A stretch of DNA of 35,441 bases from a virus (Duplodnaviria > Heunggongvirae > Uroviricota > Caudoviricetes), in the IMG/VR virus record IMGVR_UViG_2529293216_000013; one strand, 5' to 3'. Below are positions 8,275 to 24,996 of this stretch, in pieces. The position numbers and the translations under genes are program-made. The notes beneath the pieces were generated by a model. It worked only from the letters and a program-made list of their open reading frames with translations, was not told where the DNA came from and did not search any database. How positions within the stretch are numbered: the stretch's first letter is position 1; every line of letters starts with the position of its first letter.

Positions 8275-8613
8275 CTATTTCCCTGAATTTACGACGAAAC
8301 TGTTCGAGCGGGCTGAAGCACTCATGCTCATAGCCTTCGCGGAGGTAGATAACCCGTTGTGTTTCCGGTTCCCAACGAATGACTCTGACGGGCACTCCGT
8401 AGTGATCTTTGAACCAGCGGTTAACTTGTCGCAAAGGACTGTCTCCTTTTGCCTGTTGAAATCACCCACAGCCCACTCTGCAAAGCTGTGGGTTACAATT
8501 TCCCTGTCACCTGGTACATTCACTGCATAGCAATACTCCACCTTCGCTTTTCCACCCGGTACAGGAAGTGCAATCAGTTGCGAGCGACGGTAGTGTGTTG
8601 TTAAACTGTTCAT
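8275..8613 (-). CDS. Hypothetical ORF between CII-like and O-like genes; frame ambiguous
   Basis: 112 aa ORF in one frame; a second minus-strand frame (8255..8434) has AAGGAG plus TTG start and a more protein-like product ([58 protein letters not shown]) ending in overlap with the O start. Confidence 0.3.
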
Positions 8614-9161
8614 GCGTTAGTTTCTCCACAGTCACGACACGCCACGGCGCCCGGAGCTGCACACTCGCGGGCGTCATTACTTTCTGAAATGCAAAAAATT
8701 TTGTAGACCAGTGCTGCATGCTCCTGCAGCTTCGAAATTGAGAGGTACAGCTCGTCGTTAATTGCTGTCTTCTCATGCGGTTCCACTACACCGTCTTCAA
8801 TTGCTGAACGAATCTGTTTTGAATAACTGCCGATCTGTTCAATGACCTCCAGCAGGCGTTGGTTGATATCGGCGTTGTCCACATCCTCGACATCAGGAAG
8901 AGACACAAAGACGCCATTTGCAGACTGCGCCACAGCGTCAGCAATGAAGTGAGTTCCACCAGCACGTTGCAAAATCATTGCCCATCCCAGCGGGAAAATC
9001 TGATCGCCATCGGCACGAAGGCGGTTAAATAATGCGTTCTCTGTTACATCCAGCCAGTCAGCAGCTTCAGCGTACCCCCCCGGCAACGCTGCGATAGTTT
9101 TTCTGACAGCTTTCACGTACCACTCAGGCTGTTTTTCTACTTTCCAGTGATGCTTACCCAC
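8610..9161 (-). CDS. CII/YdaT-like prophage regulatory protein (putative)
   Basis: 183 aa; immediately downstream of the Cro-like gene with overlapping start/stop; family assignment from memory only. Confidence 0.4.
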
Positions 9162-9414
9162 GGTTCACCTCCTGTTCCTGTGGTTTAAACCCATTCTGGT
9201 TTTGGCTAGATTGAAAACGTGCCGGATAAAGAATCTGCATTTCGCTGACTTCACCCTTAAAAAAATTGGCTAAACGTTCTGCAAGCTCGATAGATGGAAT
9301 CTGCTCCAGCCTCTCAATACGACTCAACGTCGCTGGATTGACTTGAACACCCGCAGCAACATGCTGCAAAGTGAAACCATGCGCCTTACGCACATTTCGT
9401 AATGGTGATTGCAT
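9154..9414 (-). CDS. Cro-like HTH repressor (XRE family)
   Basis: 86 aa; HTH GFTLQHVAAGVQVNPATLSRIERLEQIPSIELAERLANFF; divergent from cI across an operator-rich 97 bp spacer. Confidence 0.65.
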   Translation of the reverse strand: MQSPLRNVRKAHGFTLQHVAAGVQVNPATLSRIERLEQIPSIELAERLANFFKGEVSEMQILYPARFQSSQNQNGFKPQEQEVNRG

Positions 9415-9424
9415 ACGCCCTCCA

Positions 9425-9495
9425 AATATTGCGCGTTATGCATGTTATTTCACGCAATTATTTTGCGCAAGTTGATTTGCTTATCACGCAATAAA
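9425..9495. promoter_or_regulatory. Right operator/promoter region (OR-like) between cro-like and cI
   Basis: Repeated half-site motifs ATTGCGCG, CACGCAAT (twice) and palindromic TTGCGCAA in the divergent intergenic region. Confidence 0.5.
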
Positions 9496-9511
9496 GAAAT
9501 GTAATAAACGC

Positions 9512-10204
9512 ATGAACATAGGAAACCGAGTCAGACAACTTCGCCAAGCGAAGAACATGAAAATCGCCGATCTCGCTGAAGCGATAGGAGTAGATGCGGC
9601 GAACATCTCGCGCTTAGAAACGGGTAAGCAAAAACAATTTACCGAACAAACACTGAGTAATATTGCCAAGAGCTTAGGTGTTGATATTGCTGATCTCTTT
9701 ACCTCTGCCCACAAAAGTAATACTGTATATAAAAACAGTAATAATGAGGATGTTGCGCAGGTGAAGGATGTGTTCCGTATTGAAATGCTGGATATCAGTG
9801 CCAGTGCGGGAAATGGCCTTATCCAGGGCGGTGATGTCATTGATGTGATTCATGCCATCGAATACAGAACTGATAATGCTGTATCAATGTTCGGCGGACG
9901 ACCAGCCAATCACATCAAAGTTATCAACGTTCGTGGGGACAGTATGTGTCCAACCATTGAGCCAGGAGATCTCATCTTCGTTGATGTCAGCATCAATCAG
10001 TTTGATGGTGATGGTATATATGTCTTTGGTTTTGATGACAAAATATACGTTAAAAGACTTCAAATGATTCCTGACAAACTGCTGGTGATTTCTGATAACC
10101 AGATTTACCGTGAATGGGGAATTACTAGCGAAAACGAACACCGATTCATGGTCTTTGGAAAGGTCTTAATCAGTCAGTCGCAAACCCTTAAGAGACATAA
10201 TTAA
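9512..10204 (+). CDS. cI: CI-type prophage repressor (HTH plus S24 LexA-like autopeptidase domain)
   Basis: 230 aa; N-terminal HTH (MKIADLAEAIGVDAANISRLETGK); C-terminal S24 motifs VRGDSMCPTIEPGDLIFVD and YVKRL (Ser/Lys dyad). Confidence 0.85.
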   Translation: MNIGNRVRQLRQAKNMKIADLAEAIGVDAANISRLETGKQKQFTEQTLSNIAKSLGVDIADLFTSAHKSNTVYKNSNNEDVAQVKDVFRIEMLDISASAGNGLIQGGDVIDVIHAIEYRTDNAVSMFGGRPANHIKVINVRGDSMCPTIEPGDLIFVDVSINQFDGDGIYVFGFDDKIYVKRLQMIPDKLLVISDNQIYREWGITSENEHRFMVFGKVLISQSQTLKRHN

Positions 10205-10223
10205 CCTCAATATCCCATCCATC

Positions 10224-10248
10224 GGCCACCGAAAGGTGGCTTTTTATT
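10224..10248 (+). terminator. Rho-independent terminator downstream of cI
   Basis: GGCCACC-gaaa-GGTGGC hairpin followed by TTTTTATT. Confidence 0.65.
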
Positions 10249-10256
10249 ACCTATAA

Positions 10257-10295
10257 ATTTGCATATCTCGCAAATACCACTTGCATATCTCGCAA
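10257..10295. promoter_or_regulatory. Left operator-like tandem dyads (OL-like)
   Basis: Two copies of TTGCATATCTCGCAA (inverted TTGC...GCAA arms), sharing the TCxCGCAA core with the OR-region sites. Confidence 0.45.
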
Positions 10296-10502
10296 TTTAA
10301 TTTTATCTTTTATTCCAGACCAACTACAGGATTACAACAAAATCTGGTTGCAACACGGTGCATGTGTCGTAAGCAGTCAGTAAATGTCAAAAACGAACAG
10401 GCAGGACGCCCACGAAGTAGCCGCCTGGGGCATATGAAGTCCAGGATGATTCGTTGAGTCATGTTGTGCCACTAGGCACTCATGTTAAAGCAGGTGTATG
10501 AA

Positions 10503-10778
10503 ATGAAAGTCCAGATTTTAAACAATAACTGTGAAGTCGTTTGGTCATACGACATAGCCGCCCCTGTAGATCAGAGCGGCGATAGCTGGACCAATGGGAA
10601 ACATCAGATTATGGCTGGAGTTGTGTTCTCTTTACGCCGTGCTTTAGAACAGGCTGAAGTCTTTCCATCAGACCCTGAATGGAAATGGCCTTTTTCTATT
10701 TGTCCAAATTCGGAGAGTACATTTCAGAAAATTGGTCAGAAAGTCGCACTCGAAGAGCATCAGCCAACTGTTTCCTGA
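10503..10778 (+). CDS. Hypothetical protein downstream of cI (rex-position cargo?)
   Basis: ORF with AGGTG Shine-Dalgarno before ATG at 10503; no recognisable motif; 3' end overlaps a convergent ORF. Confidence 0.3.
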   Translation: MKVQILNNNCEVVWSYDIAAPVDQSGDSWTNGKHQIMAGVVFSLRRALEQAEVFPSDPEWKWPFSICPNSESTFQKIGQKVALEEHQPTVS

Positions 10779-10941
10779 TTTTTTCAGGTAACTCGTCGGC
10801 ATCGCAGAAACAACAACGCTCGATCATGTTGAAAGCCGATTCGTAGAACTGTTTTTGCTGAGTGTCGCTGAGACAGGAAAAGAGCGACGTTACGATGATT
10901 TTATTAATTGCATTATCAAGTTCTTTTTCATCAAAAGTCAT
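10696..10941 (-). CDS. Hypothetical small protein (81 aa)
   Basis: Protein-like composition (MTFDEKELDNAINKII...); convergent 83 bp overlap with the previous ORF, so one of the two may be spurious. Confidence 0.3.
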   Translation of the reverse strand: MTFDEKELDNAINKIIVTSLFSCLSDTQQKQFYESAFNMIERCCFCDADELPEKIRKQLADALRVRLSDQFSEMYSPNLDK

Positions 10942-11442
10942 TTGATTTTCCTTTTATGTATACGGGCTTAAAAGGATACCACCGAGCCTGAAGTGGTGAA
11001 AAGACAGGCACATAACAGCTAAGTATTTTCAACCAGAGAGAATCCTTAGCGTTGTGGTGAATGCGGCTCAGCGCACGCGGGTTAAGGTTGAGGCTGACAG
11101 TCGACCTTCTGTGGATACCCACCCGCCTGGTGTGCAACCTTCGCCAGGCACCGGGAGGCACCCGGCACCACAACTTTATGCTGTGTGTAGTCTTAGCGGT
11201 ACCAGCTTGTACCCTTGCTTCCGGCTGGTACCGTCCTTTTTACAAAACAGAGAAGAGCATCACCGGACGACGGGCTCATAACCCAATCCATCCGGGCGGC
11301 TGCCACCGCAGGTGTATAGCGCGGCGATTTTTTTGATACCGATTTGCATTTCATTTGATACCGCTGAAAAACGCCGATACGCAACTTATTTGATACTAAA
11401 TCGGCGCTTTTCTTTTGAGTTTTAGAATGAGTTTTTAAGCGC

Positions 11443-12180
11443 TCATTCACTCTCTTTCAAACCAGTTTTAACTGTTTGTGGTTTTGGGTAAGGCTGGACT
11501 TTGAATAGCTTTGTGTTGAGGCGTTTTCTGGCCCTCTTGTTCAGAAACCGGATGTAACGAAACTGTCGGAACTTATGAACACTGGCTCTGTCAATATTAG
11601 CCCTCAGATGTTCACCTCGTTGTCCGCCTCGTTTAATGGCATTCCTGCAAATCTCGTGATACCACTCGCCATCAAGTTCATAGAATATTGATTCATGGCT
11701 GCCTACATAATCAAAATTGCTTGCCTGATACACGACACCAAGACAGCCACAACGCTCATCTGCAAACGACTGAACCCACTGTACCTGCGGATAAAGCTGC
11801 CTGATTAGCTTGAGCGCGTAACTGATTGCCCTTGATTCGGAGTTTCTCGGCATACAGTCATGCAGCCATAGCCGGTTAAGCTCCATATATTCTCGGTTCT
11901 GCGTACCCGTTACGACGCGTGCACCACTGTTTGGGTTAAGGGCGTAACCCCATTGCATTACGCCAACAAGTTCCCGTTCTGAAAATATGCCCAGATGAAG
12001 GTAGGAGTTATTTACGAAACGGTGGCTGTAATGTTTATTGACGATGACCAGTCTGGCCAGCCAGCAACTTATTGTCTCAACCCGCAACTCACGGGAGCCA
12101 TAACCAACGATATTGTCGTTATAGCGAATAAGTTCAGGCGTGCTGATGATTCGGGATGTGACTTGCTTTCTGTTCCCCAC
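11443..12180 (-). CDS. mom: Mom-like DNA modification protein (GNAT-fold acyltransferase family), putative
   Basis: 245 aa; GNAT-like C-terminal signature [12 protein letters not shown]; start overlapped by a Com-like zinc-finger gene exactly as in phage Mu com/mom. Confidence 0.5.
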
Positions 12181-12334
12181 GACAGGATTTCCTTGTGTAT
12201 GTGGGGTGCTCTGTGGCGCTCGGAGATGTGATTTGATTGAGGGTTTTACAGCGCGGACATTTTACTTCCAGATAACTGAAACTGGCCCGTGCCAGTAGCT
12301 TATTGCAGTGTCGGCACCGTATGTTTCGATACAT
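12134..12334 (-). CDS. com: Com-like zinc-finger translational activator
   Basis: [34 protein letters not shown]...EHPT resembles Mu Com (IRCKNCNKLL...IRCPRCK...EHPT) as recalled; AGGAGG upstream of the internal ATG; 3' end overlaps mom start. Confidence 0.6.
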
Positions 12335-12364
12335 GACCGCATAACCTCCTGCTTTGTTGTTGAT

Positions 12365-12400
12365 GCCTTTCTCATGCAATCGATCGACAAAAACGATCGA
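12365..12400. promoter_or_regulatory. GATC-rich putative com/mom promoter region
   Basis: Two CGATCG sites (GATC at 12371..12374 and 12384..12387) plus TCGAT repeats within about 30 bp upstream of com. Confidence 0.3.
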
Positions 12401-12448
12401 TTCGATTTGTTTAATTGATACAACAAATAGATTGAAAAGTCATCAACA

Positions 12449-12913
12449 ATGATTCAGGGAGGTGATTATTTACTTAAAGAAAACGAAGAGTTAGGTGGTG
12501 AAAACGATCATAAAATGATCATTTTATTGACTTTTTATACAGTGAAGGTAGGATCACGCGTATATGTAGTATGTTTCAAATCAACAGGATACTACATAAA
12601 AGTGAAACCCAGCATAGCTGGAACTATGCTGGGTCAATCTGTAAAAACTTGCATCAATGCTTTACTTCGAGCTCGTGGCGTATCCTATGATATTCCCCGG
12701 TCTCCTGTAAAGCAGAGATGCATAAAAAGGAGATCTTTATCATGGATGAAAGAGCCTGTTTGCCCTGCCTGTAAGACTCCCTTACAGCTCATCTATCGCC
12801 GTTCTCGATCTCAAAATGGCAAGACATACAAACCCAAAAATGCTTCCTGTTTCAGGATGCTGATATGTCCTGCCTGTTCTCCCAGGAGGGAAAATACACA
12901 AAACGTGCATTAA
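12449..12913 (+). CDS. Hypothetical protein with C-terminal double CPAC zinc-ribbon motif
   Basis: ...VCPACKTPLQ...(26 aa)...ICPACSP; N-terminal part is low-complexity and may not be coding. Confidence 0.25.
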   Translation: MIQGGDYLLKENEELGGENDHKMIILLTFYTVKVGSRVYVVCFKSTGYYIKVKPSIAGTMLGQSVKTCINALLRARGVSYDIPRSPVKQRCIKRRSLSWMKEPVCPACKTPLQLIYRRSRSQNGKTYKPKNASCFRMLICPACSPRRENTQNVH

Positions 12914-12951
12914 CAAACTCACCCGGCAGGGAAACCTGCCGGTCGGTATTG

Positions 12952-13197
12952 TTACATCATAGTACCGTCAGTTCCGGGCTGAACCGGCTCTGGTTGCTCT
13001 ACGGGTTGAGGATCATTTTCCGTGCTGTTTTCAGCCGGAGAACGGCCAACCATTCGGGCCAGCACTTCATCAACATATGCGTCGATTTGTGCCTCAAAAT
13101 CCTTGCGAACCTGCGCCTTCAGCACGCGGTTCACTTCTTCAGAATAAAGTGCCTGTTTGACAAGCTCTTCAGTAACCGTGCCTTTAATCTCTGGCAT
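12952..13197 (-). CDS. Hypothetical acidic small protein (81 aa)
   Basis: AAGGAG Shine-Dalgarno 7 nt before ATG; acidic, Pro/Glu-rich C-terminus. Confidence 0.4.
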   Translation of the reverse strand: MPEIKGTVTEELVKQALYSEEVNRVLKAQVRKDFEAQIDAYVDEVLARMVGRSPAENSTENDPQPVEQPEPVQPGTDGTMM

Positions 13198-13232
13198 GAA
13201 TATTCTCCTTTTGCAGGTATATTGCCCCGTTA

Positions 13233-13415
13233 TCAGAGCGGGGTCGGGTCGTTTGGGGATGACGGTGCCTGTGCTGTTTTACTGAGTTTTTCAGCTGCCG
13301 CATCATCAATTTTACGGCGAATATAATTTCTGATGACCTTATAACCACCGCTCACCAGATATAACGCACTGACCACAGCGCAGAAATAAAGCAGCATTGT
13401 ATGAACGAATGTCAT
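13233..13415 (-). CDS. Hypothetical small membrane protein (60 aa, one TM)
   Basis: Hydrophobic segment MLLYFCAVVSALYLVSGG followed by basic stretch. Confidence 0.35.
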   Translation of the reverse strand: MTFVHTMLLYFCAVVSALYLVSGGYKVIRNYIRRKIDDAAAEKLSKTAQAPSSPNDPTPL

Positions 13416-13561
13416 ATAACCTTACCTTTGATATTGACTACATAATTCGTTATCGGGTAAAAACATCGAAGCGACTGATAACCACTCCTTCGGGAGTATT
13501 TTTATTTTCCTTTATGGGTTAGGTAGCTCCCGCCAGCCATATCATGACCGGCGGGATTTTT

Positions 13562-15601
13562 TTATTCTGTTACCGCTTTTTTCACTTCCACCACAATGCT
13601 GTCAATCAGCACCGGGTAAGTTGCATTTTTTGTGATATCCGTTACGCGGAGTTTGTCCACCGGGAAAGTTCCTACTGGTGACTGCGTCAGGGTAAACGCG
13701 GCACCATCCTGACCATCAATAACCGGAATAACCTGAAGGCTGTTATTTCCTGCAAAACGGAAGGCCAGCGTATGCCATTCATTATCAAATGCACCAAAGG
13801 TTCCCAGTTTCTGGTTATTTGTTGCCACTTTTGCATTGTGGTACATCACATTCAGGTCTTTTGCGTCTGTCTGGATGTAGAACGATGCCAGCAGATTATT
13901 CCCTGCATCCCCTGTCAGGGTGACACCCTGCGGCAGAGAGGAAACCGGCCAGTAAAGCCCCATGACATACTGGTTTGCCACCAGGTCGCCAGGTACTTTA
14001 AAACGACAACTGATTAAACCACCATTTTTCAGCAGTTCAGCACCAGTACCGGCATCATGATCCAGATACCAGGATGATTTACCTGTTTCCTTGGTCAGTT
14101 TCATTGCCTTACCACCTGTGCCTCCTGCATCACTGATAATTTCAGCTTTACCGCCAGCCGGCTCCCAGCCCTGGGCTTTCAGATTTCCTTCTGACTCACT
14201 GACACGATAAGACAGCAGTGTTGTGGTTACTGCTTCAGTTTCTGAAGGTGACGGCACTGGTGCTTCAGTTTCAGAAGATGGAACATCGGCTTTTACTGTG
14301 GTTCGCCCCGCATGAGTCAGAACTGCCGTGGCCAGACGGTCGGAAATAATCCCACGACGTGCCCATGAACTGAAATGGCTGGCCCGGTCCGCAGATGTCC
14401 AGGTGGCGGCACTGTTACGCCACGTTGAGCCGTAATAACCAATGGATTCAATATCCGGGTCTTCTGCCGGATTGTTGGTGGGTACATTCGCGTCATTTTC
14501 ATCTGTCATTAATGGAACGAAATGAATGTTTTTATCTGTTTTGTTTTTGTAGCCGCCATAGATTGCCTGGTATGCCGGTTCATTTTTCTGTTTCCAGAAA
14601 TACGTGGTATCGCCACAAATCCACGGAACGCCAGCAGCACTGCCACCGGTACACTGTTCCGCCTGTTCAGCCAGGTCTGCGCGGAATTTTTCCACCATCG
14701 CCAGAAACAGCGCGGAATGCTCCGTCGGCTTCGCATCAATATCAAACTCGCCCTGCATCCACACCACAGCAAGCAGGCGGTTTTTCGGGTTCTTCGCCAG
14801 TGCCGCTTTTGTCCGGCTGATTAAGTCCTTATACAGCGGCTTATCCACACCCCAGCGGGCTGAGTCCTCTGAAGCACCCGTGCTGTCACTGTACGTGCCG
14901 TCAGCACCCGCCGTGAATGCAGAACCACCACGGCAGCAGGGAACCAGCAGAATCCCCGCATCTGCCGGAATAAACGGCAGCAGTTTTTTGGCAATGTGAA
15001 GCCCCTGACCCACGGTGCCATATTGCCCTTTAGCCACATCCGCTTTCGGGTGATTTTTTCCACTCATATCCTGCACATCATGCAGACAGTGGTCGGCCAG
15101 AATGATGTCGTTATACTGACAGGCTTTACCTCCCGGCGTGACTGTACTGCGACGGGCTAACTGCATAATACGCGGTTCGGGGCGGTCATATGTCTCCGGC
15201 AGTGGCAGACCTTCACCGTAAGCCATACCGTTTGACTGACCAGCAAGAACCACCACGTAATACCAGGAAGGGGAGCTGGAAGCAGTTTCATTTCCTGACG
15301 GACGGGTATGTGTTTCAGCATTATCCCAGTCTGACGGTTCAGCAGTACCGGCAACATCAGCACTTAACGGAATGACCGCACCAATACCCGCTCCGGTAAT
15401 TTCCACACTCGGATCACCGGATACTGGCCTTACCCACAGGCAATCCCGTGTATTAAAACTGATGAGACAGTCAGCAAATGTCATTCCTCCTTTTGTTTCG
15501 GCCGGAGGAAAGGGAGCCTCAAGAAATGCCGCTGTACCACCGGAAACTTTAACAGTAAAGTTTCCGGGCATTGATGATAGTTGAACCCATTTGGACGTCA
15601 T
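13562..15601 (-). CDS. Prophage sialate O-acetylesterase-like protein (NanS-p-like, SASA/SGNH esterase core)
   Basis: 679 aa; motif VVVLAGQSNGMAYGEG (GQSN catalytic Ser motif); size and architecture resemble NanS-p paralogs of E. coli prophages. Confidence 0.65.
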   Translation of the reverse strand: MTSKWVQLSSMPGNFTVKVSGGTAAFLEAPFPPAETKGGMTFADCLISFNTRDCLWVRPVSGDPSVEITGAGIGAVIPLSADVAGTAEPSDWDNAETHTRPSGNETASSSPSWYYVVVLAGQSNGMAYGEGLPLPETYDRPEPRIMQLARRSTVTPGGKACQYNDIILADHCLHDVQDMSGKNHPKADVAKGQYGTVGQGLHIAKKLLPFIPADAGILLVPCCRGGSAFTAGADGTYSDSTGASEDSARWGVDKPLYKDLISRTKAALAKNPKNRLLAVVWMQGEFDIDAKPTEHSALFLAMVEKFRADLAEQAEQCTGGSAAGVPWICGDTTYFWKQKNEPAYQAIYGGYKNKTDKNIHFVPLMTDENDANVPTNNPAEDPDIESIGYYGSTWRNSAATWTSADRASHFSSWARRGIISDRLATAVLTHAGRTTVKADVPSSETEAPVPSPSETEAVTTTLLSYRVSESEGNLKAQGWEPAGGKAEIISDAGGTGGKAMKLTKETGKSSWYLDHDAGTGAELLKNGGLISCRFKVPGDLVANQYVMGLYWPVSSLPQGVTLTGDAGNNLLASFYIQTDAKDLNVMYHNAKVATNNQKLGTFGAFDNEWHTLAFRFAGNNSLQVIPVIDGQDGAAFTLTQSPVGTFPVDKLRVTDITKNATYPVLIDSIVVEVKKAVTE

Positions 15602-15700
15602 AATAATCAGCCTGTTCCTGAATAAACTGAATTATCATATCCACAGACCGATAAACGCCATTTTGCGTTAATTCAGTAAAGGCCCAACAAAGAGAGCGTC

Positions 15701-16261
15701 TTATTTTTCCGAAACGCTCGCAGGATAATAACGATAAAGGGTTGAAAGGCCGATATCAAAAATAAGTGCCACCTGTCTTCGACTGACACCCCCGGCCAGT
15801 AAACGCCCGACCTGCTCGTATTGTTCCTGCGTGAGACGACGGGGTCTGCCGCCGGTTCGTCCCCTTTCACGGGCAGCTGCAAGACCAGCCCGTGTCCGTT
15901 CGACAATTAATTCACGCTCCATTTCTGCCAGCGCACCCATTATGTGAAAAAAGAAGCGCCCCATGGGGGTTGACGTATCAATGTTGTCAGTAAGACTACG
16001 AAAATTTATCCCCTGTTGCTGTAATTCATCTGTCAGCGCAACAAGGTGGCGCATACTGCGCCCCAGCCTGTCCAGTTTCCAGACCATCAGTGTGTCACCG
16101 GGTTTTAGTTTCTTCAGTGCCCGCTTCAGTCCCGGCCGCTGTGTCGTTTTACCACTCATTTTATCTTCAAAAATCTGCTCACATCCTGCACATTCCAGCG
16201 CATTTCTTTGTAAACCTGTGTTCTGGTCATTTGTTGATACGCGTATATAGCCAATCAGCAT
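15701..16261 (-). CDS. pin: Serine recombinase DNA invertase (Pin/Hin/Gin/Cin family), copy 1
   Basis: 186 aa; MLIGYIRVSTNDQNTGLQRNALECAGCEQIFEDK...GRSMRHL...C-terminal HTH; close match to e14 Pin as recalled. Confidence 0.9.
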   Translation of the reverse strand: MLIGYIRVSTNDQNTGLQRNALECAGCEQIFEDKMSGKTTQRPGLKRALKKLKPGDTLMVWKLDRLGRSMRHLVALTDELQQQGINFRSLTDNIDTSTPMGRFFFHIMGALAEMERELIVERTRAGLAAARERGRTGGRPRRLTQEQYEQVGRLLAGGVSRRQVALIFDIGLSTLYRYYPASVSEK

Positions 16262-16687
16262 GTATTTACCTTCCTTAAAAAGAGGTGGAAAGGCCTTTTA
16301 AAGCAGATATACGGCATCCCTGAAACCTTCGGTTTACGGGATACTGTAAACAGGGCCGCGAATGCCCTGCCATCGAACGGAGCGGCTGTTGCAGCGAATA
16401 AACTCGCCACTCCAAGAAATATTAATGGTGTCCCATTTGACGGAACGCAGGATATAAATATTACATCGGGGATGACGCAGTCTGTGGCTGACTCACGTTA
16501 TGTTCAAAGCATTCGAAGAGGTTCAAGGTCAACGATTGGAATGCAATATAATATTTTTGAGGTTCCTGACGGATGCGTACTTACAGGGCTTGATGTCGCT
16601 GGTGATGGTAATGCAACGGTAACCGCATATTATCGACCTGTTCAGTTTCTGATAGATGGTTCGTGGAAAACAGCTTCCAGCGCATAA
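16262..16687 (+). CDS. Tail fibre variable C-terminal segment (Sv), 5'-truncated (no constant part)
   Basis: Open frame from 16238 without start codon; ...LATPRNINGVPFDGTQDINITSGMTQSVADSRYVQ...AYYRPVQFLIDGSWKTASSA. Confidence 0.55.
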   Translation, partial: VFTFLKKRWKGLLKQIYGIPETFGLRDTVNRAANALPSNGAAVAANKLATPRNINGVPFDGTQDINITSGMTQSVADSRYVQSIRRGSRSTIGMQYNIFEVPDGCVLTGLDVAGDGNATVTAYYRPVQFLIDGSWKTASSA

Positions 16688-17715
16688 AAGTGCAGTAGTT
16701 CAAAAAACAGATTATCTGAATAAATATATGATGATTTTGTCTTTTCAACAAAAACAAGGTGAAATAATGGAGCTTATTAACGTAAAACGATATTACCCGG
16801 AACACAAACCCTATGGTGAGGATGTTCAGTATTTCCAGAGTGAGGACGGAAGGGATTTTTATGAATCTATCCCGCTTTTCACAAAGAAATACAAACTCTG
16901 TATTTCGCCTGTAACGGGTATTATCTGCTCTGTTGCTGAAGATGTCTCTGCTTTATATCCGGCAGGTTTTACTGTTGTTGAAGTGGACGAACTGCCGGAA
17001 GGTGTGAATATTGACGGTAACTGGCAGTTTTCTGATGGCCTGATATCAAAGGTGCCGGTAAACTGGAAGACGGTTGCTGAAAAGCGCCGCTCATCGCTGC
17101 TCCAGGAAGCCAACGAAACTGTGGATGACTGGAAAACGGAATTAAAACTGGACATGATTAGCGATGAAAATAAATTACAGCTGACGCGCTGGATGGCGTA
17201 TATCCGACAGCTTAAAGAAATGCACTTTAATGATATTGCCAGTGAGGGGCATTACCAGGCGATTCCCTGGCCGGAAAAACCGGAATAATTCAGAGGGTGC
17301 ATTCAGCACCCTTTTCTGTGGTTTACACTGAACTTACCGTTCTCCAGGCATTATTAATATAAATCTGAACCGGGCGATAATAGACCCCACCGATATTGTC
17401 CGCAGACCGGGAGCCGGTTTCCTGCACGTTAATTCCGGAAAGCATACAACCGGAAGGTGCGCTGTAATTCCATGACATTTCATTGCCTCCGGGTGAATGA
17501 TAGCTCTGTGCTCCAAGCTGAACATTCTGTACATACCGGCCATCTGCGGTTGACTGCGTCATTCCTGACGTGATGTTGATATCCAGCGTTCCGTCAAAAG
17601 GAACACCATTAATATTTCTTGGGGTGGCGAGTCTGTTTGCTGCCACGGCGGTTCCACCCGATGGCAGGGCATCAGCAGCCTTATTTACCGTTTCCCGTAA
17701 ACCAACGTTTAAGAA
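16318..17715. mobile_element. Invertible tail-fibre segment (G/P-segment-like) between inverted crossover sites
   Basis: gix/cix-like sites AAACCTTCGGTTTACGGGA near 16320..16343 and inverted partial copy near 17692..17712; both lie inside tail-fibre reading frames at the conserved ...GLR(D/E)TVN(R/K)AA(N/D)ALP... junction. Confidence 0.55.
16767..17288 (+). CDS. Tail fibre assembly protein (Tfa/U-like)
   Basis: Start MELINVKRYYPEHKP with Shine-Dalgarno; C-terminus ...LTRWMAYIRQLKEMHFNDIASEGHYQAIPWPEKPE typical of Tfa chaperones. Confidence 0.7.
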   Translation: MELINVKRYYPEHKPYGEDVQYFQSEDGRDFYESIPLFTKKYKLCISPVTGIICSVAEDVSALYPAGFTVVEVDELPEGVNIDGNWQFSDGLISKVPVNWKTVAEKRRSSLLQEANETVDDWKTELKLDMISDENKLQLTRWMAYIRQLKEMHFNDIASEGHYQAIPWPEKPE

Positions 17716-17745
17716 AATGCAGAGATTATGGCTAACTGGCATCAT
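17323..17745 (-). CDS. Alternative tail fibre variable C-terminal segment (Sv')
   Basis: Shares ...LATPRNINGVPFDGTLDINITSGMTQSTADGRYVQ... with Sv, then diverges; ends ...VYYRPVQIYINNAWRTVSSV. Confidence 0.55.
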   Translation of the reverse strand: MMPVSHNLCIFLNVGLRETVNKAADALPSGGTAVAANRLATPRNINGVPFDGTLDINITSGMTQSTADGRYVQNVQLGAQSYHSPGGNEMSWNYSAPSGCMLSGINVQETGSRSADNIGGVYYRPVQIYINNAWRTVSSV

Positions 17746-17772
17746 CCCCGGTTTTTACTCAGGGGAATGCTC

Positions 17773-18327
17773 ATGCTTATTGGCTATGTCCGCGTATCAA
17801 CAAATAACCAGAATACGGAATTACAGCGTAATGCGCTGGAGTGTGCAGGATGTGAGCTGATTTTTGAAGACAAGATAAGCGGTACAAAGTCCGACAGACC
17901 AGGACTGAAAAAGCTGCTCAGGACATTATCGGCAGGTGACACGCTGGTGGTCTGGAAACTGGACCGACTGGGGCGCAGTATGCGGCATCTTGTCGTGCTG
18001 GTGGAGGAGTTGCGCGAACGAGGCATCAACTTTCGTAGTCTGACGGATTCAATTGATACCAGTACCCCAATGGGGCGCTTTTTCTTTCATGTGATGGGTG
18101 CCCTGGCTGAAATGGAGCGTGAACTGATTGTTGAACGAACAAAAGCTGGACTGGAAGCAGCTCGCGCACAGGGACGAATTGGTGGACGTCGTCCCAAACT
18201 TACACCAGAACAATGGGCGCAGGCCGGGCGATTAATTGCATCAGGCGTTCCTCGCCAAAAGGTGGCGATCATCTATGATGTTGGTATATCGACACTGTAT
18301 AAGAAGTTTCCGGTCGGAGATAAATGA
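17773..18327 (+). CDS. pin: Serine recombinase DNA invertase (Pin family), copy 2
   Basis: Start MLIGYVRVSTNNQNTELQRNALECAGCELIFEDK...; roughly 80% identical to copy 1, opposite orientation. Confidence 0.9.
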   Translation: MLIGYVRVSTNNQNTELQRNALECAGCELIFEDKISGTKSDRPGLKKLLRTLSAGDTLVVWKLDRLGRSMRHLVVLVEELRERGINFRSLTDSIDTSTPMGRFFFHVMGALAEMERELIVERTKAGLEAARAQGRIGGRRPKLTPEQWAQAGRLIASGVPRQKVAIIYDVGISTLYKKFPVGDK

Positions 18328-18387
18328 AACCGTAGCACGTCGTATGCAAGAAGATCGTGCTGCGGTTTATGCTTATCACTTAAAGAC

Positions 18388-19257
<870 letters not shown>

Positions 19258-19337
19258 CTAAGTCTTTGAATTTACATAGTACAAAAAAGATACTTTTCCT
19301 CATAATGTGAATTAATTTTATGTTTCGTTTGATGATT

Positions 19338-19403
19338 GGACCGGTCTCGAAAACCGGAGTAGGGGCAACTCTACCGGGGGGGCAAATCCCCCTCTCTCCG
19401 CCA
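19338..19403 (+). tRNA. Degenerate 3' fragment of tRNA-Ser (serU-like, anticodon CGA); probable prophage att scar, not a functional tRNA
   Basis: GGACCGGTCTCGAAAACCGGAGTAGGGGCAACTCTACCGGGGGGGCAAATCCCCCTCTCTCCGCCA matches the tRNA-Ser(CGA) 3' two-thirds as recalled, with a damaged T-loop (GGGCAAATCC instead of GGTTCAAATCC); 5' acceptor/D-arm absent. Confidence 0.6.
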
Positions 19404-19976
19404 CTTTATCAATGACTTATCTCCCGACTTCCCGCCTTGCTTTTCCTAAACAGAACAATCGTAGAATATTCTTGAAGGGTTAGATCGTCACTGTTTTCTG
19501 TTCGATACTGTGACATTCAGCACTTGATTCGCTATGGATCTGACAGGAAGGTTTCGAGCGAAAATCTGCAGTTATTCAGTCGTTTTCTTATCGGTCACCA
19601 TTATTCTTTTAGACATTGATCCTACAAAGCTGCCGCAAAGTTGGTGGTGGGAACTGAAGTTGCGTAGAGAAGGGGTCAATACCCGGAGGCAAACATGGGC
19701 TGGCAAAAGTGTAGCGGTATTAGGCGCAGCTATTTAGCCTAGTTATGTTTTATGAAAACTTGATATCATATAAGTGTCTTACTTATTGGCTGTAAATAAG
19801 TTTTTCCTAAGGAATTGTTTCTTGAGTATCATTTGTAACTGTAACGGAATTTATAATCCTTTGCTTTATTGTTACGGTATTTTTTATCACACCCTATTTT
19901 TAGTGGTTTTTTATACTGAAGTTTGGCAAAGTGAACTTTATATACATATACTTCATCCTGGTTTCAGTTAAATTGG

Positions 19977-20729
19977 GTGGATGATATGGCAACTACATGT
20001 TCAGTTATATTGATTTTGGAGTCCTTTGATGTTTATTTCGGAAAAGAGAGTGTGTTTCTGGAGAGAGGTTCATCTGTACTTGTCGACTCTAGCTCTAGAG
20101 ATTTTTTCCTGACATATCCTGAAAGAGTGATAGTGGCGGATTTTGGCGCTGAGTTTATTAGTCGCTATTTGAAAGCTAATAACTTAAGGGATATTTCTGA
20201 TTGTAGGGAATATCCATCTTATTTAAAAATAAACTTTGCTGACTTCAGTTTAATTAAAGGATTAATTAGTTGGGCTAATCACTGTGCTGAATACATAGAA
20301 ATTTTTGATGAGTCTATTGCTTTTACATGTCTCTCTGCATTTTCTTCTGAAAAACAATTTGGAGTATTTCTGTTTGGATGTTTGAAAAGCACAGGGGCTA
20401 AAGTTAAAACGATTATTCATACGGATTTATCTGCACCATGGCGTCTTAAGGATATATCATCAAGATTATATCTCAGCGAAAGTTTACTAAAGAGGAAATT
20501 GAAAGAAGAGGGGGTATCATTCAGTAAGATCATACTTGATGAGAGGATGCAAATGGCTGAATATTTACTCAGCACTCGTTGTTATCCTATTAGTAAAGTA
20601 GCTAAGGTCTGTGGTTATGCCAGTGTCTCATACTTTACTTATGTATTTAGACGTTATTTTGGTGTTTCTCCAAGTCAATACTCTCAGAGGAGTTCAGAAA
20701 GTAAAATTCTTACTCACCAGGGAATCTGA
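19977..20729 (+). CDS. AraC-family transcriptional regulator (AppY-like, AT-rich)
   Basis: 250 aa; C-terminal dual HTH WRLKDISSRLYLSESLLKRKLKEEGVSFSKIILDERMQMAEYLL...VAKVCGYASVSYFTYVFRRYFGVSPSQY resembles AppY as recalled. Confidence 0.7.
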   Translation: MDDMATTCSVILILESFDVYFGKESVFLERGSSVLVDSSSRDFFLTYPERVIVADFGAEFISRYLKANNLRDISDCREYPSYLKINFADFSLIKGLISWANHCAEYIEIFDESIAFTCLSAFSSEKQFGVFLFGCLKSTGAKVKTIIHTDLSAPWRLKDISSRLYLSESLLKRKLKEEGVSFSKIILDERMQMAEYLLSTRCYPISKVAKVCGYASVSYFTYVFRRYFGVSPSQYSQRSSESKILTHQGI

Positions 20730-20770
20730 TCATTGTTCTTGCCCCCTTATTTCCAGACAGGGGGTGTATC

Positions 20771-21214
20771 TTAAGTTAACGTTACCCGCTGACGTCGATA
20801 TTCTCGCGGAGAGCGATAACCCAACGCACTGTGCGGATGGTTTTCATTGTAATGTTCGATCGCCACTGCAAGATTATGCAATGCCGTTCTTACATTCGGT
20901 TTCGGCATGAACGCGATATAGTCTTCCTTCATCGTTTTCACGAACCTTTCTGCAATTCCATTACTCTGAGGACTGCTGATTGCCGTTGTGCAGGGCTCCA
21001 GATTCAACTCTCTGGCGAACTGCCGTGTTTCATGCGCTCTATACGCTGAACCGTTATCTGTCAGCCACTGGATGGACTGTTCCGGTACTTTATCGCCAAA
21101 GCGTTTTTCTATCGCTCCTAACATGACATCCTGCACTGTCGCTTTATCGTAACCTCCCGTGCTTGCGGCCCAGTCTATGGCTTCACGATCGCAACAGTCC
21201 AGGGCGATTCATCT
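20771..21214 (-). mobile_element. IS3-family (IS2-like) transposase remnant: C-terminal DDE-domain portion only
   Basis: ...[50 protein letters not shown]...[14 protein letters not shown] matches IS2 OrfB C-terminus; no ATG, frame closed upstream by a stop near 21215. Confidence 0.7.
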
Positions 21215-21483
21215 GGGCCAATCCTCGCTCATAACAGGCATTCACTTCAGTCATGGCAGAAAGGTATGCATGCTGGAGAAGTCGTGAAAGAAAAGAAGAC
21301 TGCTGCGCCGTTTGTCGTCACGTTTATCTTCATTGGCTATGCAAGTCGTAATACAAGGTGGGACAAAACTGAGACACATAAGGCCTCGCAATGGCTTGCA
21401 AGGCTTTACATGTTTTGATGTGGTGGGACGTGTGAGCGCAGTGTTGATGGGGTAATGCTTTGAATTAGAAGCGGATTCTTATA

Positions 21484-21529
21484 ATTCGTAATGCGAAGGT
21501 CGTAGGTTCGACTCCTATTATCGGCACCA
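21484..21529 (+). tRNA. 3' fragment (about 46 nt) of tRNA-Thr (thrW-like); attL core of the P4-like element
   Basis: ATTCGTAATGCGAAGGTCGTAGGTTCGACTCCTATTATCGGCACCA matches the thrW 3' half as recalled; upstream sequence does not match the tRNA 5' half. Confidence 0.65.
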
Positions 21530-21691
21530 TCTCAACTTCCTCAAACGTCCGTATTAGTCCATAAAATCTCTGATTTATAACATTTTTTATTCTTTTAAGT
21601 CCATAGTAGTCCGTAACCATCCAGTAGAATCCGGTACTGAATGTGTATAGGATTGTGTATATGTTCCTGTTCGGTCTGGATTCCTATACAC

Positions 21692-22873
21692 ATGCCTTTA
21701 AACGATATGCAGATTCGCCGCGCTAAGCCTGAAGCTAAAGCCTATACATTTGGAGATGGGCTAGGGTTGTCATTACTTATAGAACCTAATGGAAGCAAGA
21801 GTTGGCGGTTCCGCTATCGCTATGCCGGCAAACCCAAAATGATCTCGCTTGGTGTTTACCCAACGATCACCCTTGCCGATGCTCGTTCCCGTCGTGATGA
21901 AGCTCGAAAACTTGTGGCAGAAGGAAAGAACCCTAGTGAGGTTCGAAAAGAGCAAAAGCTAGCTATGCAAACAGAGTCAGAGAACGCCTTCGAAAAGATA
22001 GCCAGAGAGTGGCATCAACTTAAATCTGCTAAATGGTCGGCGGGATATGCATCAGACATCATGGAAGCGTTTAAGAACGACATTTTTCCTTATGTCGGAA
22101 CAAGGCCTGTGGGAGAGATTAAACCGCTAGAGCTGCTGAACGTTCTGCGTAAAATTGAGAAACGTGGTGCGTTGGAGAAAATGCGCAAAGTGCGGCAGCG
22201 TTGCTCCGAAGTGTTTCGCTACGCAATTGCAACGGGTAGGGCGGAGTACAATCCTGCGGCTGATCTCTCCAGCGCTCTCGAAGTACACCAATCCAATCAT
22301 TTCCCATTCCTAAAAGCTGATGAGATACCTGATTTTCTACGTGCCTTAGAGGGTTACTCCGGGAGTAAGCTTGTCCAGATAGCCACGAAATTACTGATGA
22401 TTACGGGTGTGAGAACCATCGAATTACGCGCGGCATTATGGCAAGAATTTGATCTGGATAACGCTATTTGGGAAATTCCTGCTGAAAGGATGAAAATGCG
22501 TAGGCCACATCTTGTGCCCTTATCATCTCAAGCGGTAGATTTACTCAATGAACTCAAGATCATGACAGGGAACTATCGTTATGTTTTTCCAGGGCGGAAC
22601 GATCCGAATAGGCCAATGAGCGAAGCGAGTATAAATCAAGCCATTAAGCGTATTGGGTATGGAGGAAAAGTCACTGGACATGGTTTTCGTCATACCCTTT
22701 CTACAATCCTGCATGAGCAAGGTTTTGAGAGTGCTTGGATTGAAATCCAGTTGGCTCATGTAGATAAAAATTCTATTAGGGGGACTTATAACCATGCTCA
22801 ATATTTTAGTGGAAGGAAGTCTATGATGGACTGGTACAGTAATTTGATATTTGAAAGACTAAAAAGGAGTTAA
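21692..22873 (+). CDS. int: P4-type tyrosine integrase
   Basis: N-terminus MPLNDMQIRRAKPEAKAYTFGDGLGLSLLIEPNGSKSWRFRYRYAGK...; C-terminal catalytic region HGFRHT...; adjacent to tRNA fragment. Confidence 0.85.
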   Translation: MPLNDMQIRRAKPEAKAYTFGDGLGLSLLIEPNGSKSWRFRYRYAGKPKMISLGVYPTITLADARSRRDEARKLVAEGKNPSEVRKEQKLAMQTESENAFEKIAREWHQLKSAKWSAGYASDIMEAFKNDIFPYVGTRPVGEIKPLELLNVLRKIEKRGALEKMRKVRQRCSEVFRYAIATGRAEYNPAADLSSALEVHQSNHFPFLKADEIPDFLRALEGYSGSKLVQIATKLLMITGVRTIELRAALWQEFDLDNAIWEIPAERMKMRRPHLVPLSSQAVDLLNELKIMTGNYRYVFPGRNDPNRPMSEASINQAIKRIGYGGKVTGHGFRHTLSTILHEQGFESAWIEIQLAHVDKNSIRGTYNHAQYFSGRKSMMDWYSNLIFERLKRS

Positions 22874-22876
22874 TTT

Positions 22877-23293
22877 GTGTCTCAACCACTTTCGGAAATA
22901 TTGACATGGGATGATGAACAATGGGAGGTATTTGTCCATGATTGGCTTATTGTCTGTAAATCAGATGATTACCCGTGGAGCGAACGTTTGGGAGGAGCTG
23001 GAGATAAAGGTAGAGACGTTGTTGGATATAAATCGGATCCTAACGTAGAAGGTTATTCTTGGGATAATTATCAATGCAAACTGTACAAAAAAAGTTTAGG
23101 GTTCTCTGATGTTGTAGTTGAGTTTGGAAAACTTATCTATTTTACTCTGAATGGTGATTATCCCATCCCTCAGAAGTACTTTTTTGTGGCACCCTATGAT
23201 TTATCTACTACATTTTCTAATTTATTGAAAAATAAAAACGAGCTTAAAAAAGCAGTCCTTGATTCATGGGATTCAGCAATTTCAAAAAAATAA
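22877..23293 (+). CDS. Mrr-like PD-(D/E)xK nuclease domain protein, 5' segment of candidate defence effector (LmuA-like); frame breaks in A7 tract
   Basis: GTG start with AAAAAGGAG Shine-Dalgarno 4 nt after int stop; motif GGAGDKGRDVVGY...YQCKLYKK resembles Mrr catalytic core GDGGIDG...QCKRYK; about 28% GC. Confidence 0.5.
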   Translation: MSQPLSEILTWDDEQWEVFVHDWLIVCKSDDYPWSERLGGAGDKGRDVVGYKSDPNVEGYSWDNYQCKLYKKSLGFSDVVVEFGKLIYFTLNGDYPIPQKYFFVAPYDLSTTFSNLLKNKNELKKAVLDSWDSAISKK

Positions 23294-23883
23294 CTAAAAA
23301 GATTGATATTCCATTAGATGATGAAATAAAAAAATATATTGAGGATTTTGATTTTAGTATTTTTTACTCTCTACCCTTATCATTGATTTTAAATGATATT
23401 GCAAATACACACCTTTATTTTAAGTACTTTAACGAGCTGTATGTCGTGAGAATCCCTCCAAATGAAATTCCAACATACAATTCAAAAAAAGAGTCTGTAT
23501 ATGTTAATGCACTGCTTCAAGCCTATTCAGAGCATGGAAATAAAACTTATAGTTCTTTCTTAGAGCTTGATGATCCATACAGACGACACTTTAATAATAG
23601 TAGAAATGATTTTTATTTTGCATCTTCGCTTGAGGTTTTTGTCCGCGAAGTATTTAAAGATGATGTATTCAAAGCATTGAAATGTTACATTTCATCTTCA
23701 ATTGAACCCGTCTTTTATGAAGACCATAATTATGCATTTATTAGGTGTAATGCAGTCTTGAAGCAGGCTGTTCTGACACCAATTGCACATTCAGTACTAT
23801 CAAAAATATGTGAAGCAAATGATAAAAAAGGAATATGCCATCATTTGGTTAATGATGGTGAAGTAATTTGGACGGTGAGATAA
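23266..23883 (+). CDS. 3' segment of the same candidate effector gene (C-terminal domain, function unknown)
   Basis: Frame is +1 relative to previous ORF and fuses with it if the A7 tract at 23284..23290 is read as A8 (...DSWDSAISKKITKKIDIPLDDEIKK...). Confidence 0.45.
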   Translation: MGFSNFKKITKKIDIPLDDEIKKYIEDFDFSIFYSLPLSLILNDIANTHLYFKYFNELYVVRIPPNEIPTYNSKKESVYVNALLQAYSEHGNKTYSSFLELDDPYRRHFNNSRNDFYFASSLEVFVREVFKDDVFKALKCYISSSIEPVFYEDHNYAFIRCNAVLKQAVLTPIAHSVLSKICEANDKKGICHHLVNDGEVIWTVR

Positions 23884-24341
23884 TGGTTAGAATTTATAAT
23901 TCAAGTTTAGAAGTGGCATGTCGAATGGCGAAAGTGCTCGTCGCTATTTATCCTTCTTCATTAAGCCTTGAACGGCTTATTTGTTTTGATTTTATTTTAG
24001 TAAATCTTAAGGATTTTTTACCTGAAGAGATTAGTCTTCATCCTCCAATACCCCGTAGAGATGCTCAGTTAGCCCTAAAACGAGAGATTGTTTTAGAATC
24101 ATTGGCTTTGTTGCAAGGCTATGAACTAGCCTCAAAAATTTATACACATCGTGGTTTTGTATATAAAGCTTCTGAAAAAACATATGCATTTACAAATTCT
24201 CTACATAATGAATATGTTGCGCAGATGGAGCATAATATAAATTTGGTGGTTAAGTTATATAGTGATATTCCTGATGAGCAGTTGCAATCAATTATAAAAA
24301 ATAAAATTGGCAAATATGATATGGAATTTAATTATGAATGA
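23883..24341 (+). CDS. Small middle component of candidate defence operon (LmuC-like position)
   Basis: ATG overlaps upstream stop (TAATG); 3' end overlaps next gene start (ATGAATGA); AT-rich; no recognisable motif. Confidence 0.45.
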   Translation: MVRIYNSSLEVACRMAKVLVAIYPSSLSLERLICFDFILVNLKDFLPEEISLHPPIPRRDAQLALKREIVLESLALLQGYELASKIYTHRGFVYKASEKTYAFTNSLHNEYVAQMEHNINLVVKLYSDIPDEQLQSIIKNKIGKYDMEFNYE

Positions 24342-24966: not shown

Positions 24967-24996
24967 AAAAATCAAATTGCAAATATTTATGAGGAA

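Follow-up and report, generated by a model that had tools for sequence, protein, structure and literature searches.

The DNA analysed here (the window) is the 35,441-nucleotide (nt) stretch of the IMG/VR virus record IMGVR_UViG_2529293216_000013 (Caudoviricetes), and our subject is a minus-strand gene for a NanS-p-family sialate O-acetylesterase that lies in the right end of a Mu-like prophage. The sole long open reading frame (ORF) of the interval 13562..15601 is intact, encodes 679 amino acids (aa) and contains LAGQSNGMAYGEG, with the GQSN motif at residues 121-124, so that the coordinates, length and motif given in a preliminary description of this DNA were exact; the ORFs overlapping it on both strands do not exceed 141 aa in the ORF list of the window. 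We consider it highly probable that the gene encodes an active esterase of the NanS-p family, fixed as a cassette in a Mu-like prophage and fitted with a swapped N-terminal module. The gene and its parts, in the order of translation, are the following.

13562..15601, minus strand: NanS-p-family sialate O-acetylesterase gene, 679 aa with an ATG start, equal to RefSeq WP_010917876.1
15362..15601, minus strand: N-terminal orphan module (N-module, residues 1-80), predicted all-beta, in place of DUF1737; no Pfam match
15266..15361, minus strand: linker 1 (residues 81-112), rich in S, T, P, D, E and N and predicted disordered (predicted local distance difference test, pLDDT, below 50 from residue 80 on)
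14312..15265, minus strand: SASA/SGNH-like esterase domain (residues 113-430), 58% identical to NanS 3PT5
15233-15235, minus strand: codon of the esterase nucleophile Ser123, within GQSN 121-124
within 14312..15265, minus strand: esterase blocks RGGSAF (residues 224-229) and MQGEFD (residues 282-287), placed by motif position
14375-14377, minus strand: codon of the esterase His409, within R406-A-S-H409
14228..14311, minus strand: linker 2 (residues 431-458), a SETEA-type repeat with a 10-aa deletion in the 669-aa allele
13565..14227, minus strand: C-terminal lectin-like jelly-roll domain, DUF6645 (residues 459-679), 79% identical to 6YP6

The identification as a NanS-p-like esterase carried by a prophage, which had been proposed from the letters alone, is borne out by searches of three collections. 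In the PDB, residues 104-428 match NanS (YjhS, 3PT5) with an E-value of 1.9e-118 and 58% identity (186/320), and residues 459-674 match the NanS-p C-terminal domain 6YP6 with an E-value of 1e-111 and 79% identity (171/216). Pfam places SASA (PF03629) at residues 116-312 with 46.0 bits, the gathering cut-off being 24.8, and DUF6645 at residues 524-642 (E 2.4e-69, 231 bits), while the PHROG search returned phrog_143 with 1027 bits (E reported as 0). The NanS-p C-terminal domain has a lectin-like fold for which carbohydrate binding has been proposed (Franke et al. 2020, summarised in PMC8065619 and PMC10462455). A closer similarity to a structural tail protein, named in the preliminary description as the finding that would speak for another identity, did not emerge: the only such match is phrog_25867, at residues 210-311 with an E-value of 4.4e-5, against 2e-118 for NanS.

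A survey of SGNH-like folds lists the active-site blocks of NanS as GQSNA (17-21), RGGSAF (120-125), MQGEFD (178-183) and R-x-S-H301-F-S, with Ser19 and His301 as catalytic residues and, in 3PT5, a main-chain oxygen at the Arg position in the role of the acid, with no Asp side chain involved (PMC10792757). In the window protein GQSN 121-124 aligns to GQSNA 17-21 of 3PT5, the blocks RGGSAF from residue 224 and MQGEFD from residue 282 are identical to those of 3PT5, and R406-A-S-H409-F-S aligns to R-S-S-H301-F-S; the equivalents of the NanS Ser, His and Arg (Ser123, His409 and Arg406) are all kept. Identification of a Ser-His-Asp triad had been suggested as a check on the enzyme; its serine and histidine are in place, together with Arg406, but the triad as such is not the right criterion, because NanS lacks the Asp and leaves the acid role to the main-chain oxygen (PMC10792757). 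Judged from these alignments, the 679-aa protein belongs to the NanS-p family of sialate O-acetylesterases and is apparently competent in catalysis. No Sec signal peptide was found, since the N-terminus holds no hydrophobic stretch.

The lambdoid NanS-p proteins are 78-81% identical to the window esterase over residues ~106-678, and the ratio of non-synonymous to synonymous substitution rates (dN/dS) indicates purifying selection on the N-module (0.10-0.12), the SASA domain (0.10-0.20) and the C-terminal domain (0.14-0.19), unlike linker 2, where it is ~1.2 in the comparison with strain RM9245. The protein is identical to that of an annotated gene in strain RM10386, and this exact sequence is already public in a 90% cluster of 1046 members named either 'sialate O-acetylesterase' or 'DUF6645 domain-containing protein'. 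The commonest allele in public data (P0063, 669 aa) is the window protein minus 10 residues in linker 2, and is always found in the same gene layout followed by differing host genes. The enzyme has therefore been named before in database annotation; what is new is the lineage-specific front end in place of DUF1737, together with the Mu-like carrier. The searchable literature describes NanS-p esterases only in lambdoid prophages, and no paper in it joins NanS-p with Mu-like phages or mentions DUF6645.

The resemblance to the NanS-p proteins of E. coli prophages that had been pointed out earlier holds for the esterase and C-terminal domains but not for the N-terminal ~110 residues, where an unrelated module replaces DUF1737. 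Pfam searches with the full protein and with residues 1-112 returned no DUF1737, and residues 1-112 had no match of any kind at E<=1; the N-terminus of the VT1-Sakai protein, serving as positive control, matched DUF1737 at 7.5e-13. By BLASTP the window N-terminus gave no alignment to lambdoid NanS-p before residue ~100-106, and at the DNA level similarity to lambdoid nanS-p begins at 15267/15263. Among 50,697 phage records the N-module occurs only in two Mu-like phages inserted into Shiga toxin (Stx) phages. An exhaustive HMMER search of 1.84 billion representatives yielded five matches, four of which are N-terminal pieces of the same family: two run on into the GQSN esterase start (P0004 and P0008), and two end before it, one being frameshifted (P0006) and the other 26 aa long (P0007). 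The fifth, a 1445-aa repeat protein with an E-value of 3e-8 (P0005), is probably a compositional match to the linker/strand region and was discarded. For the N-module, homologue searches by word index gave nothing beyond truncated members of the same protein family, and a contig scan with the N-module alignment hit loci of Proteus and of a Bacillota metagenome-assembled genome that match only the esterase start (the GQSN peptide) and are uninformative.

An AlphaFold2 model built from four sequences predicts five beta strands in residues 1-78 with pLDDT of 70-85, followed by a disordered linker. The fold predicted for the N-module is thus all-beta, as against the helix and three strands described for DUF1737 (phi24B preprint, bioRxiv 10.64898/2026.04.10.717836). 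A single-sequence AlphaFold model of the full protein had a mean pLDDT of 34 and was not used; nor did we use as evidence the weak likeness that the N-module bears to small cupin-like barrels and uncharacterised phage proteins of ~90 aa. Diverged copies of the module come from other genomes. In Salmonella enterica it is 29% identical and the gene follows Mu-type tail and baseplate genes, a tail fibre, an inverted segment and an invertase. A second module type, 59% identical, is found in E. coli DEC6C (L008, 10001-11578) as a multiply frameshifted pseudogene placed after an invertase, in a phage that carries MuA, MuB and Gam, and an intact fragment of this type exists in Shigella sonnei. The N-module is an orphan: it is found only fused to GQSN esterases, and the place of the fusion gene is one and the same in the Mu-type phages of E. 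coli, Shigella and Salmonella.

The carrier is recognised from the DNA around the gene. The window from ~11313 to 17709 is 99.95% identical to the right end of Mu-like prophages in strains of E. coli that produce Shiga toxin (STEC), for example O26 RM10386, and in relatives matching at 100% the same genes continue into a Mu-type tail, a baseplate and a gpT-family head, the window covering only the right-hand 6.4 kilobases (kb) of the Mu-like phage. The features that surround the esterase gene, from the invertible segment down to the phage end, are these.

16324..17710, no strand assigned: invertible tail-fibre segment, with 183-nt inverted repeats at 16324-16506 and 17528-17710
15701..16261, minus strand: Gin-type serine invertase (Resolvase and HTH_7), 75% identical to Mu Gin
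13528..13556, no strand assigned: GC-rich hairpin right after the esterase stop, read from the sequence; with its A-run on the gene strand, a putative terminator for the opposite strand
13233..13415, minus strand: DUF1378 small membrane-type ORF of 60 aa (Pfam 1.2e-38), second gene of the cassette
12952..13197, minus strand: DUF826 ORF of 81 aa (Pfam 2.8e-15), third gene of the cassette
12923..12942, minus strand: hairpin (CCGGCAGG-TTTC-CCTGCCGG) followed by a T-rich stretch, just past the DUF826 stop, read from the sequence
12335..12951, no strand assigned: 0.6-kb spacer between the cassette and com, with a hairpin, a doubtful ORF and GATC palindromes
12134..12334, minus strand: com, translational regulator of mom (Pfam Zn_ribbon_Com 3.2e-12; 47% identical to Mu Com; RefSeq annotation)
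11443..12180, minus strand: mom, DNA modification (Pfam Mom 4e-77; 79% identical to Mu Mom)
11313..11400, no strand assigned: right end of the Mu-like prophage, placed by match boundaries, with three TTTGATAC repeats (11332, 11354 and 11389)

On the minus strand the order therefore runs Gin-type invertase, esterase, DUF1378, DUF826, 0.6-kb spacer, com, mom and phage end. Of the hallmarks of a Mu-like carrier, com-mom at the right end, a Gin-type invertase and an invertible tail-fibre segment are present, and transposase A/B and the Mu-type head and tail genes lie outside the window. All three window occurrences of TTTGATAC lie in the prophage right end, where we infer that they are transposase-binding sites. 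On its plus strand the invertible segment encodes a C-terminal tail-fibre fragment and a tail-fibre assembly gene, and on its minus strand another C-terminal tail-fibre fragment (17323-17745), in agreement with the annotation of the identical region in RM10386. Sp18 is, by published description, a Mu-like phage that is apparently intact and has an invertible region for host specificity (PMC2669165); Sp18 and Phi804-3 occupy different loci, and a Mu-like prophage has been reported to be capable of transposition (PMC7430833). The carrier in the window is the right end of an Sp18-type Mu-like transposable prophage, which explains the position remarked upon in the preliminary description, beside a tail-fibre inversion module rather than in a Q-to-lysis locus. 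Both halves of that remark are correct. The esterase gene begins 99 nt downstream of the Gin/Pin-type invertase, on the same strand, and the invertase abuts the invertible segment; neither a Q antiterminator nor a lysis gene adjoins the esterase gene, and the lysis genes nearest to it are those of another prophage at window positions 1-11315.

DNA covering the N-terminal region and the gin junction was found in 205 of 5426 complete E. coli genomes (about 4%), mostly STEC. In all of the 207 records that matched over at least 80% of the query, the matching DNA lies under a DUF6645 protein (207/207), and a recombinase adjoins the N-module in every one except RM9245. When the 3' end of gin was fused to the 5' end of com as a synthetic query, none of the same 5426 genomes showed the two genes adjacent. 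The esterase-DUF1378-DUF826 cassette is fixed between the invertase and com-mom in Sp18-type Mu-like prophages. The host genes flanking the Mu-like prophage differ between strains, pointing to many chromosomal insertion sites; the phage also sits in a lambdoid portal gene in O26 RM10386 (L001, 12983-14011) and in the Stx1a and Stx2c phages of LC727895 and LC727881 (L002, 2997-3000), which, together with the window, suggests that it is often found inside resident prophages. The exceptional strain RM9245 (L014, 2810-6342) has a Mu-like prophage with neither invertase nor invertible segment, in which the esterase gene comes right after the genes for the tail fibre and DUF4376, all on the same strand.

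The relation between the N-module and the remainder of the protein, hereafter the payload, became visible when the window gene was compared with the alleles of strains 7_12_30A and JNEC-KY202. By domain, the proteins agree as follows.

N-module: 78/80 aa identical (97.5%), with 6 synonymous and 2 non-synonymous substitutions and a dN/dS of 0.10
Esterase domain: 213/317 aa identical (67%)
C-terminal domain: 83/206 aa identical (40%)

A sliding comparison of the DNA gave the following identities.

from gin across the intergenic region and the N-module to ~15300: 95-100%
esterase and C-terminal domains with intergenic region and DUF1378 (~15270-13200): 23-78% in windows of 100 columns, counting gaps
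from DUF826 through the spacer to com and mom: 97-100%

The allele swap relative to 7_12_30A thus begins at about 15300-15270, and linker 1 terminates at this recurrent recombination junction, in the sequence ...SSSPSWYY. DUF826 stands on the conserved backbone side of the swap, whereas DUF1378 lies inside the low-identity tract and travels with the payload. The second payload keeps GQSN, RGGSAF and T-H-F-S, its best phage matches being only ~62% identical. Conversely, the payload of the window recurs behind other front ends. Lambdoid phages carry payloads 78-81% identical to it behind DUF1737, and in a P2-like phage, past the lysis genes, a diverged DUF1737 precedes a payload 95% identical; this phage is a third chassis for the payload. 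The P2-like gene, with the architecture DUF1737-SASA-DUF6645 (P0096; L019, 8001-9660, E. coli draft GCA_052609765.1), directly follows lysozyme and LysC. Since the N-module is conserved while the payload is swapped, and since the same payload is found behind DUF1737, the linker preceding the esterase is a recurrent recombination junction. In these comparisons the front end follows the phage chassis, and the esterase, the lectin domain and DUF1378 form an exchangeable block.

A further gene of mixed make-up was met in an E. coli draft assembly (P0067; L015, 608-2539, GCA_012426925.1). Its DUF1737 is lambdoid, the first half of its esterase domain is lambdoid-like and the second half is of the window type; DUF1378, DUF826, com and mom follow, and the gene lies 608 nt from the contig end. 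We rejected it as a DUF1737-type gene native to a Mu-like phage, because lambdoid-like sequence makes up the 5' half and window-like sequence the 3' half; the gene is either a recombinant of lambdoid and Mu-like nanS-p paralogues or a chimera of the draft assembly.

The two small genes that accompany the esterase have lambdoid counterparts as well. VT1-Sakai and phage 1720a-02 have, in this order, stx, nanS-p, an ORF of ~60 aa, an ORF of 81 aa and holin S. The window DUF1378 ORF is 53-54% identical to the ORF after nanS-p in these two phages, the window DUF826 ORF is 47% identical to its lambdoid counterparts, and both follow the esterase in the lambdoid order and spacing (at 53% and 47% identity). 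The three-gene unit is accordingly common to this prophage and the lambdoid late region, without being a recent copy from the phages compared. The hairpin at 12923..12942 is plausibly the end of the cassette transcript. The spacer beyond it is 96.6-98.9% conserved and has no DNA match in lambdoid loci or in Mu, and no holin or endolysin remnant was found in the 0.6 kb between DUF826 and com. It harbours a strong hairpin with a 13-base-pair (bp) stem on the minus strand (12606-12635) and, just upstream of com, a GATC-containing palindrome (AATCGATCGACAAAAACGATCGATT, 12378-12402) that recalls the Dam- and OxyR-controlled mom region of Mu. A plus-strand ORF in the spacer (12449-12913, 154 aa, with CxxC pairs) has been annotated in some genomes as a hypothetical protein; frameshifts interrupt it in 7_12_30A, JNEC-KY202 and RM9245, its DNA being 97-99% conserved, and is probably not a gene.

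The remainder of the window belongs to a different prophage. Positions 1-11315 correspond, in reverse complement, to the early and lysis region in the O157:H7 prophage that is integrated at thrW (FRIK2455, 298577-309891), and positions 17684-35441 continue just upstream of pinE of the thrW prophage (FRIK2455, 330196 onward). The Mu-like right end (~11313-17709) joins the thrW-prophage DNA at about 11313-11316, and at its other side the Mu-like and pinE-side matches share 26 bp (17684-17709), within that 183-nt arm of the inverted repeats in which the Gin/Pin crossover sites lie. In the simplest model, a Mu-like phage inserted beside the early region of the thrW prophage and Gin/Pin recombination between the sites of the two invertible segments then inverted ~38 kb, so that a hybrid invertible segment now lies between two invertase genes and the Mu-like prophage is split. 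The Gin-type gene (15701-16261, minus strand) and PinE (17773-18327, plus strand) are 73% identical in protein and form an inverted repeat of 414 nt at 76%, and the hybrid segment between gin and pinE has no constant part of a tail fibre on either side. The three-part arrangement of the window was found in 0 of 5426 complete E. coli genomes. Adjoining pinE is a LEM-3-like GIY-YIG nuclease gene (18388-19212, minus strand), and genes of an 'ABC-three component system' (~22877-24966, plus strand; FRIK2455 annotation) follow a P4-like integrase; both are candidate defence genes, unrelated to the esterase.

Enzymes of the NanS-p family hydrolyse 5-N-acetyl-9-O-acetylneuraminic acid (Neu5,9Ac2) and the mono-, di- and tri-O-acetylated sialic acids of mucin, and they enable lysogens to grow on Neu5,9Ac2 (PMC8065619); activity has been demonstrated only for lambdoid NanS-p and for NanS. 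By family membership, the window enzyme would de-O-acetylate Neu5,9Ac2 as well as O-acetylated sialoglycans of mucin, with the lectin-like domain directing it to glycans; since it has no signal peptide, it would meet its substrate upon phage lysis or as part of released particles, and the lysogen population could then use the de-acetylated sialic acid. In the comparison with RM9245 conservation upstream of the esterase ATG extends for only ~25 nt, and so short a stretch shared between the two contexts argues against a dedicated conserved promoter and favours expression by read-through from the upstream gin or tail-fibre genes as the most likely mode. Terminator-like sites are modestly enriched in the region (13 against 5.9 +/- 2.8 in shuffled sequences).

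What the N-module does is best approached through its lambdoid equivalent, gp84 of phi24B having been described as a processed capsid-decoration protein that is anchored by DUF1737 (bioRxiv 10.64898/2026.04.10.717836). It is tempting to speculate, with a confidence that stops somewhat short of even, that the N-module may likewise be an adaptor tying an exchangeable payload to the Mu-type particle or to another phage-specific partner. A broader version, which we put forward more tentatively, is that NanS-p-type N-terminal domains could be interchangeable virion-docking adaptors, specific to each chassis (DUF1737 variants or the orphan beta-module), with one payload circulating among lambdoid, P2-like and Mu-like phages. 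A number of points weigh against our explanation as a whole. The N-module model was built on four sequences only, a Foldseek comparison of it with the PDB and BFVD gave nothing at E <0.001, the searches gave the module no detectable relative of known function, and its dN/dS estimate is based on only 8 substitutions. Promoter-like signals in the region are not above chance (5 against 7.0 expected from shuffles). DUF1737-type NanS-p proteins occur in lambdoid phages of differing head types and in a P2-like phage, so that a rule of one adaptor per capsid type is not established. Finally, as the inversion in the window has split the Mu-like prophage, particles may not form in the window strain in this orientation.

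The same facts can be read in other ways. The protein could be a soluble enzyme, encoded by a moron gene and released on lysis, whose N-terminal ~110 residues are the remnant of a fused ORF with no docking role. Such a reading would account for an N-module that has neither a homologue of known function nor a significant fold match and for a gene lying outside the head and tail blocks; chromosomal NanS works without any N-terminal domain of this kind, and NanS-p has classically been viewed as an enzyme that benefits the lysogen. A mere remnant would hardly be expected, however, to be kept down to 29% identity in Salmonella, always fused to an esterase and in the same slot, with a dN/dS of about 0.1, nor to stay intact while the payload is replaced with a breakpoint exactly at the linker, and a capsid anchor has now been reported at the equivalent position in lambdoid NanS-p. 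We therefore regard the soluble enzyme as rather unlikely, though as the chief rival it deserves serious attention. A decaying passenger that no longer gives active enzyme we judge very improbable indeed: decayed copies do exist, such as the frameshifted one of E. coli DEC6C, and databases hold many partial proteins, mostly at contig ends, but the window copy is full-length with all its catalytic blocks, is identical in hundreds of genomes, and has a dN/dS well below 1 in the N-module, the esterase and the lectin domain.

A location on the tail comes to mind from the map, where the gene directly follows the tail-fibre module, in RM9245 even without an invertase between. The N-module would then sit on the baseplate or tail fibres and the enzyme de-O-acetylate O-antigen or a sialic-acid capsule, aiding adsorption in the manner of tailspikes with SGNH esterases; receptor de-acetylation has been raised as an open possibility for NanS-p in a review (PMC8065619), and the weak PHROG match to a 'tail protein' (phrog_25867) would fit. 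That match is restricted to the esterase fold, though, no trimerisation or tail-fibre-like sequence was seen in the protein, the catalytic and lectin domains are 78-95% identical to those of NanS-p in lambdoid and P2-like phages with quite different tails, and the sole experimental localisation of a family member is to the capsid. A tail-associated, receptor-modifying enzyme thus seems improbable to us, and an adaptor tying the payload to the particle or another phage-specific partner remains the reading we prefer.

NanS-p esterases are thought to help STEC feed on gut mucin, and the Mu-like copies add to the number of nanS-p genes that functional studies have to count or delete. The natural series of domain swaps amounts to a natural experiment on the role of the NanS-p N-terminal domain. 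If the module docks to Mu-type particles, the display of sialate esterase would be convergent in three unrelated phage architectures and would suggest that in mucus the phage itself gains, and not the lysogen alone; if docking adaptors are interchangeable, Mu-type particles too would display a mucin-directed sialate esterase.

Among the known systems close to the window gene are the NanS-p of lambdoid and Stx prophages (Z1466/L0105 of 933W, H0032 of VT1-Sakai and vb_24B_21/gp84 of phi24B). The window gene shares with them the SASA and lectin-like domains (78-81% identity over residues ~106-678), the DUF1378 and DUF826 ORFs that follow, carriage by a prophage and the lack of a signal peptide; it differs in having an unrelated all-beta module where they have DUF1737, and in lying after a Gin invertase and before com-mom, whereas the lambdoid gene lies between Q/stx and the holin. 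From the capsid-decoration type represented by phi24B gp84 it is set apart by the absence of the capsid-binding DUF1737. With the P2-like esterase (P0096) it has a payload in common at 95% identity, that gene differing in its diverged DUF1737 N-terminus and its place after P2-type lysis genes. Chromosomal NanS, a product of the nanCMS sialic-acid regulon, has a single domain and about 330 aa. Its catalytic domain (YjhS, 3PT5) is 58% identical to that of the window protein, which keeps all four active-site blocks; the window protein differs from NanS in being phage-borne and in having, beyond the esterase, an N-terminal module, a lectin-like domain and two linkers.

As to the carrier, the right end of phage Mu shows the same gene order and orientation, with Gin 75%, Mom 79% and Com 47% identical, and likewise an invertible tail-fibre segment with inverted repeats (the Mu G segment). 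The gap between gin and com is 94 bp in Mu, whereas it is about 3.4 kb here, taken up by the cassette and the 0.6-kb spacer. Tailspikes of the P22 family combine a conserved particle-binding N-terminus with exchangeable catalytic parts. The window protein is alike in its lineage-conserved N-module, its linker and its exchanged payload, by analogy only, as there is no relation in sequence or fold and particle binding is hypothetical here.

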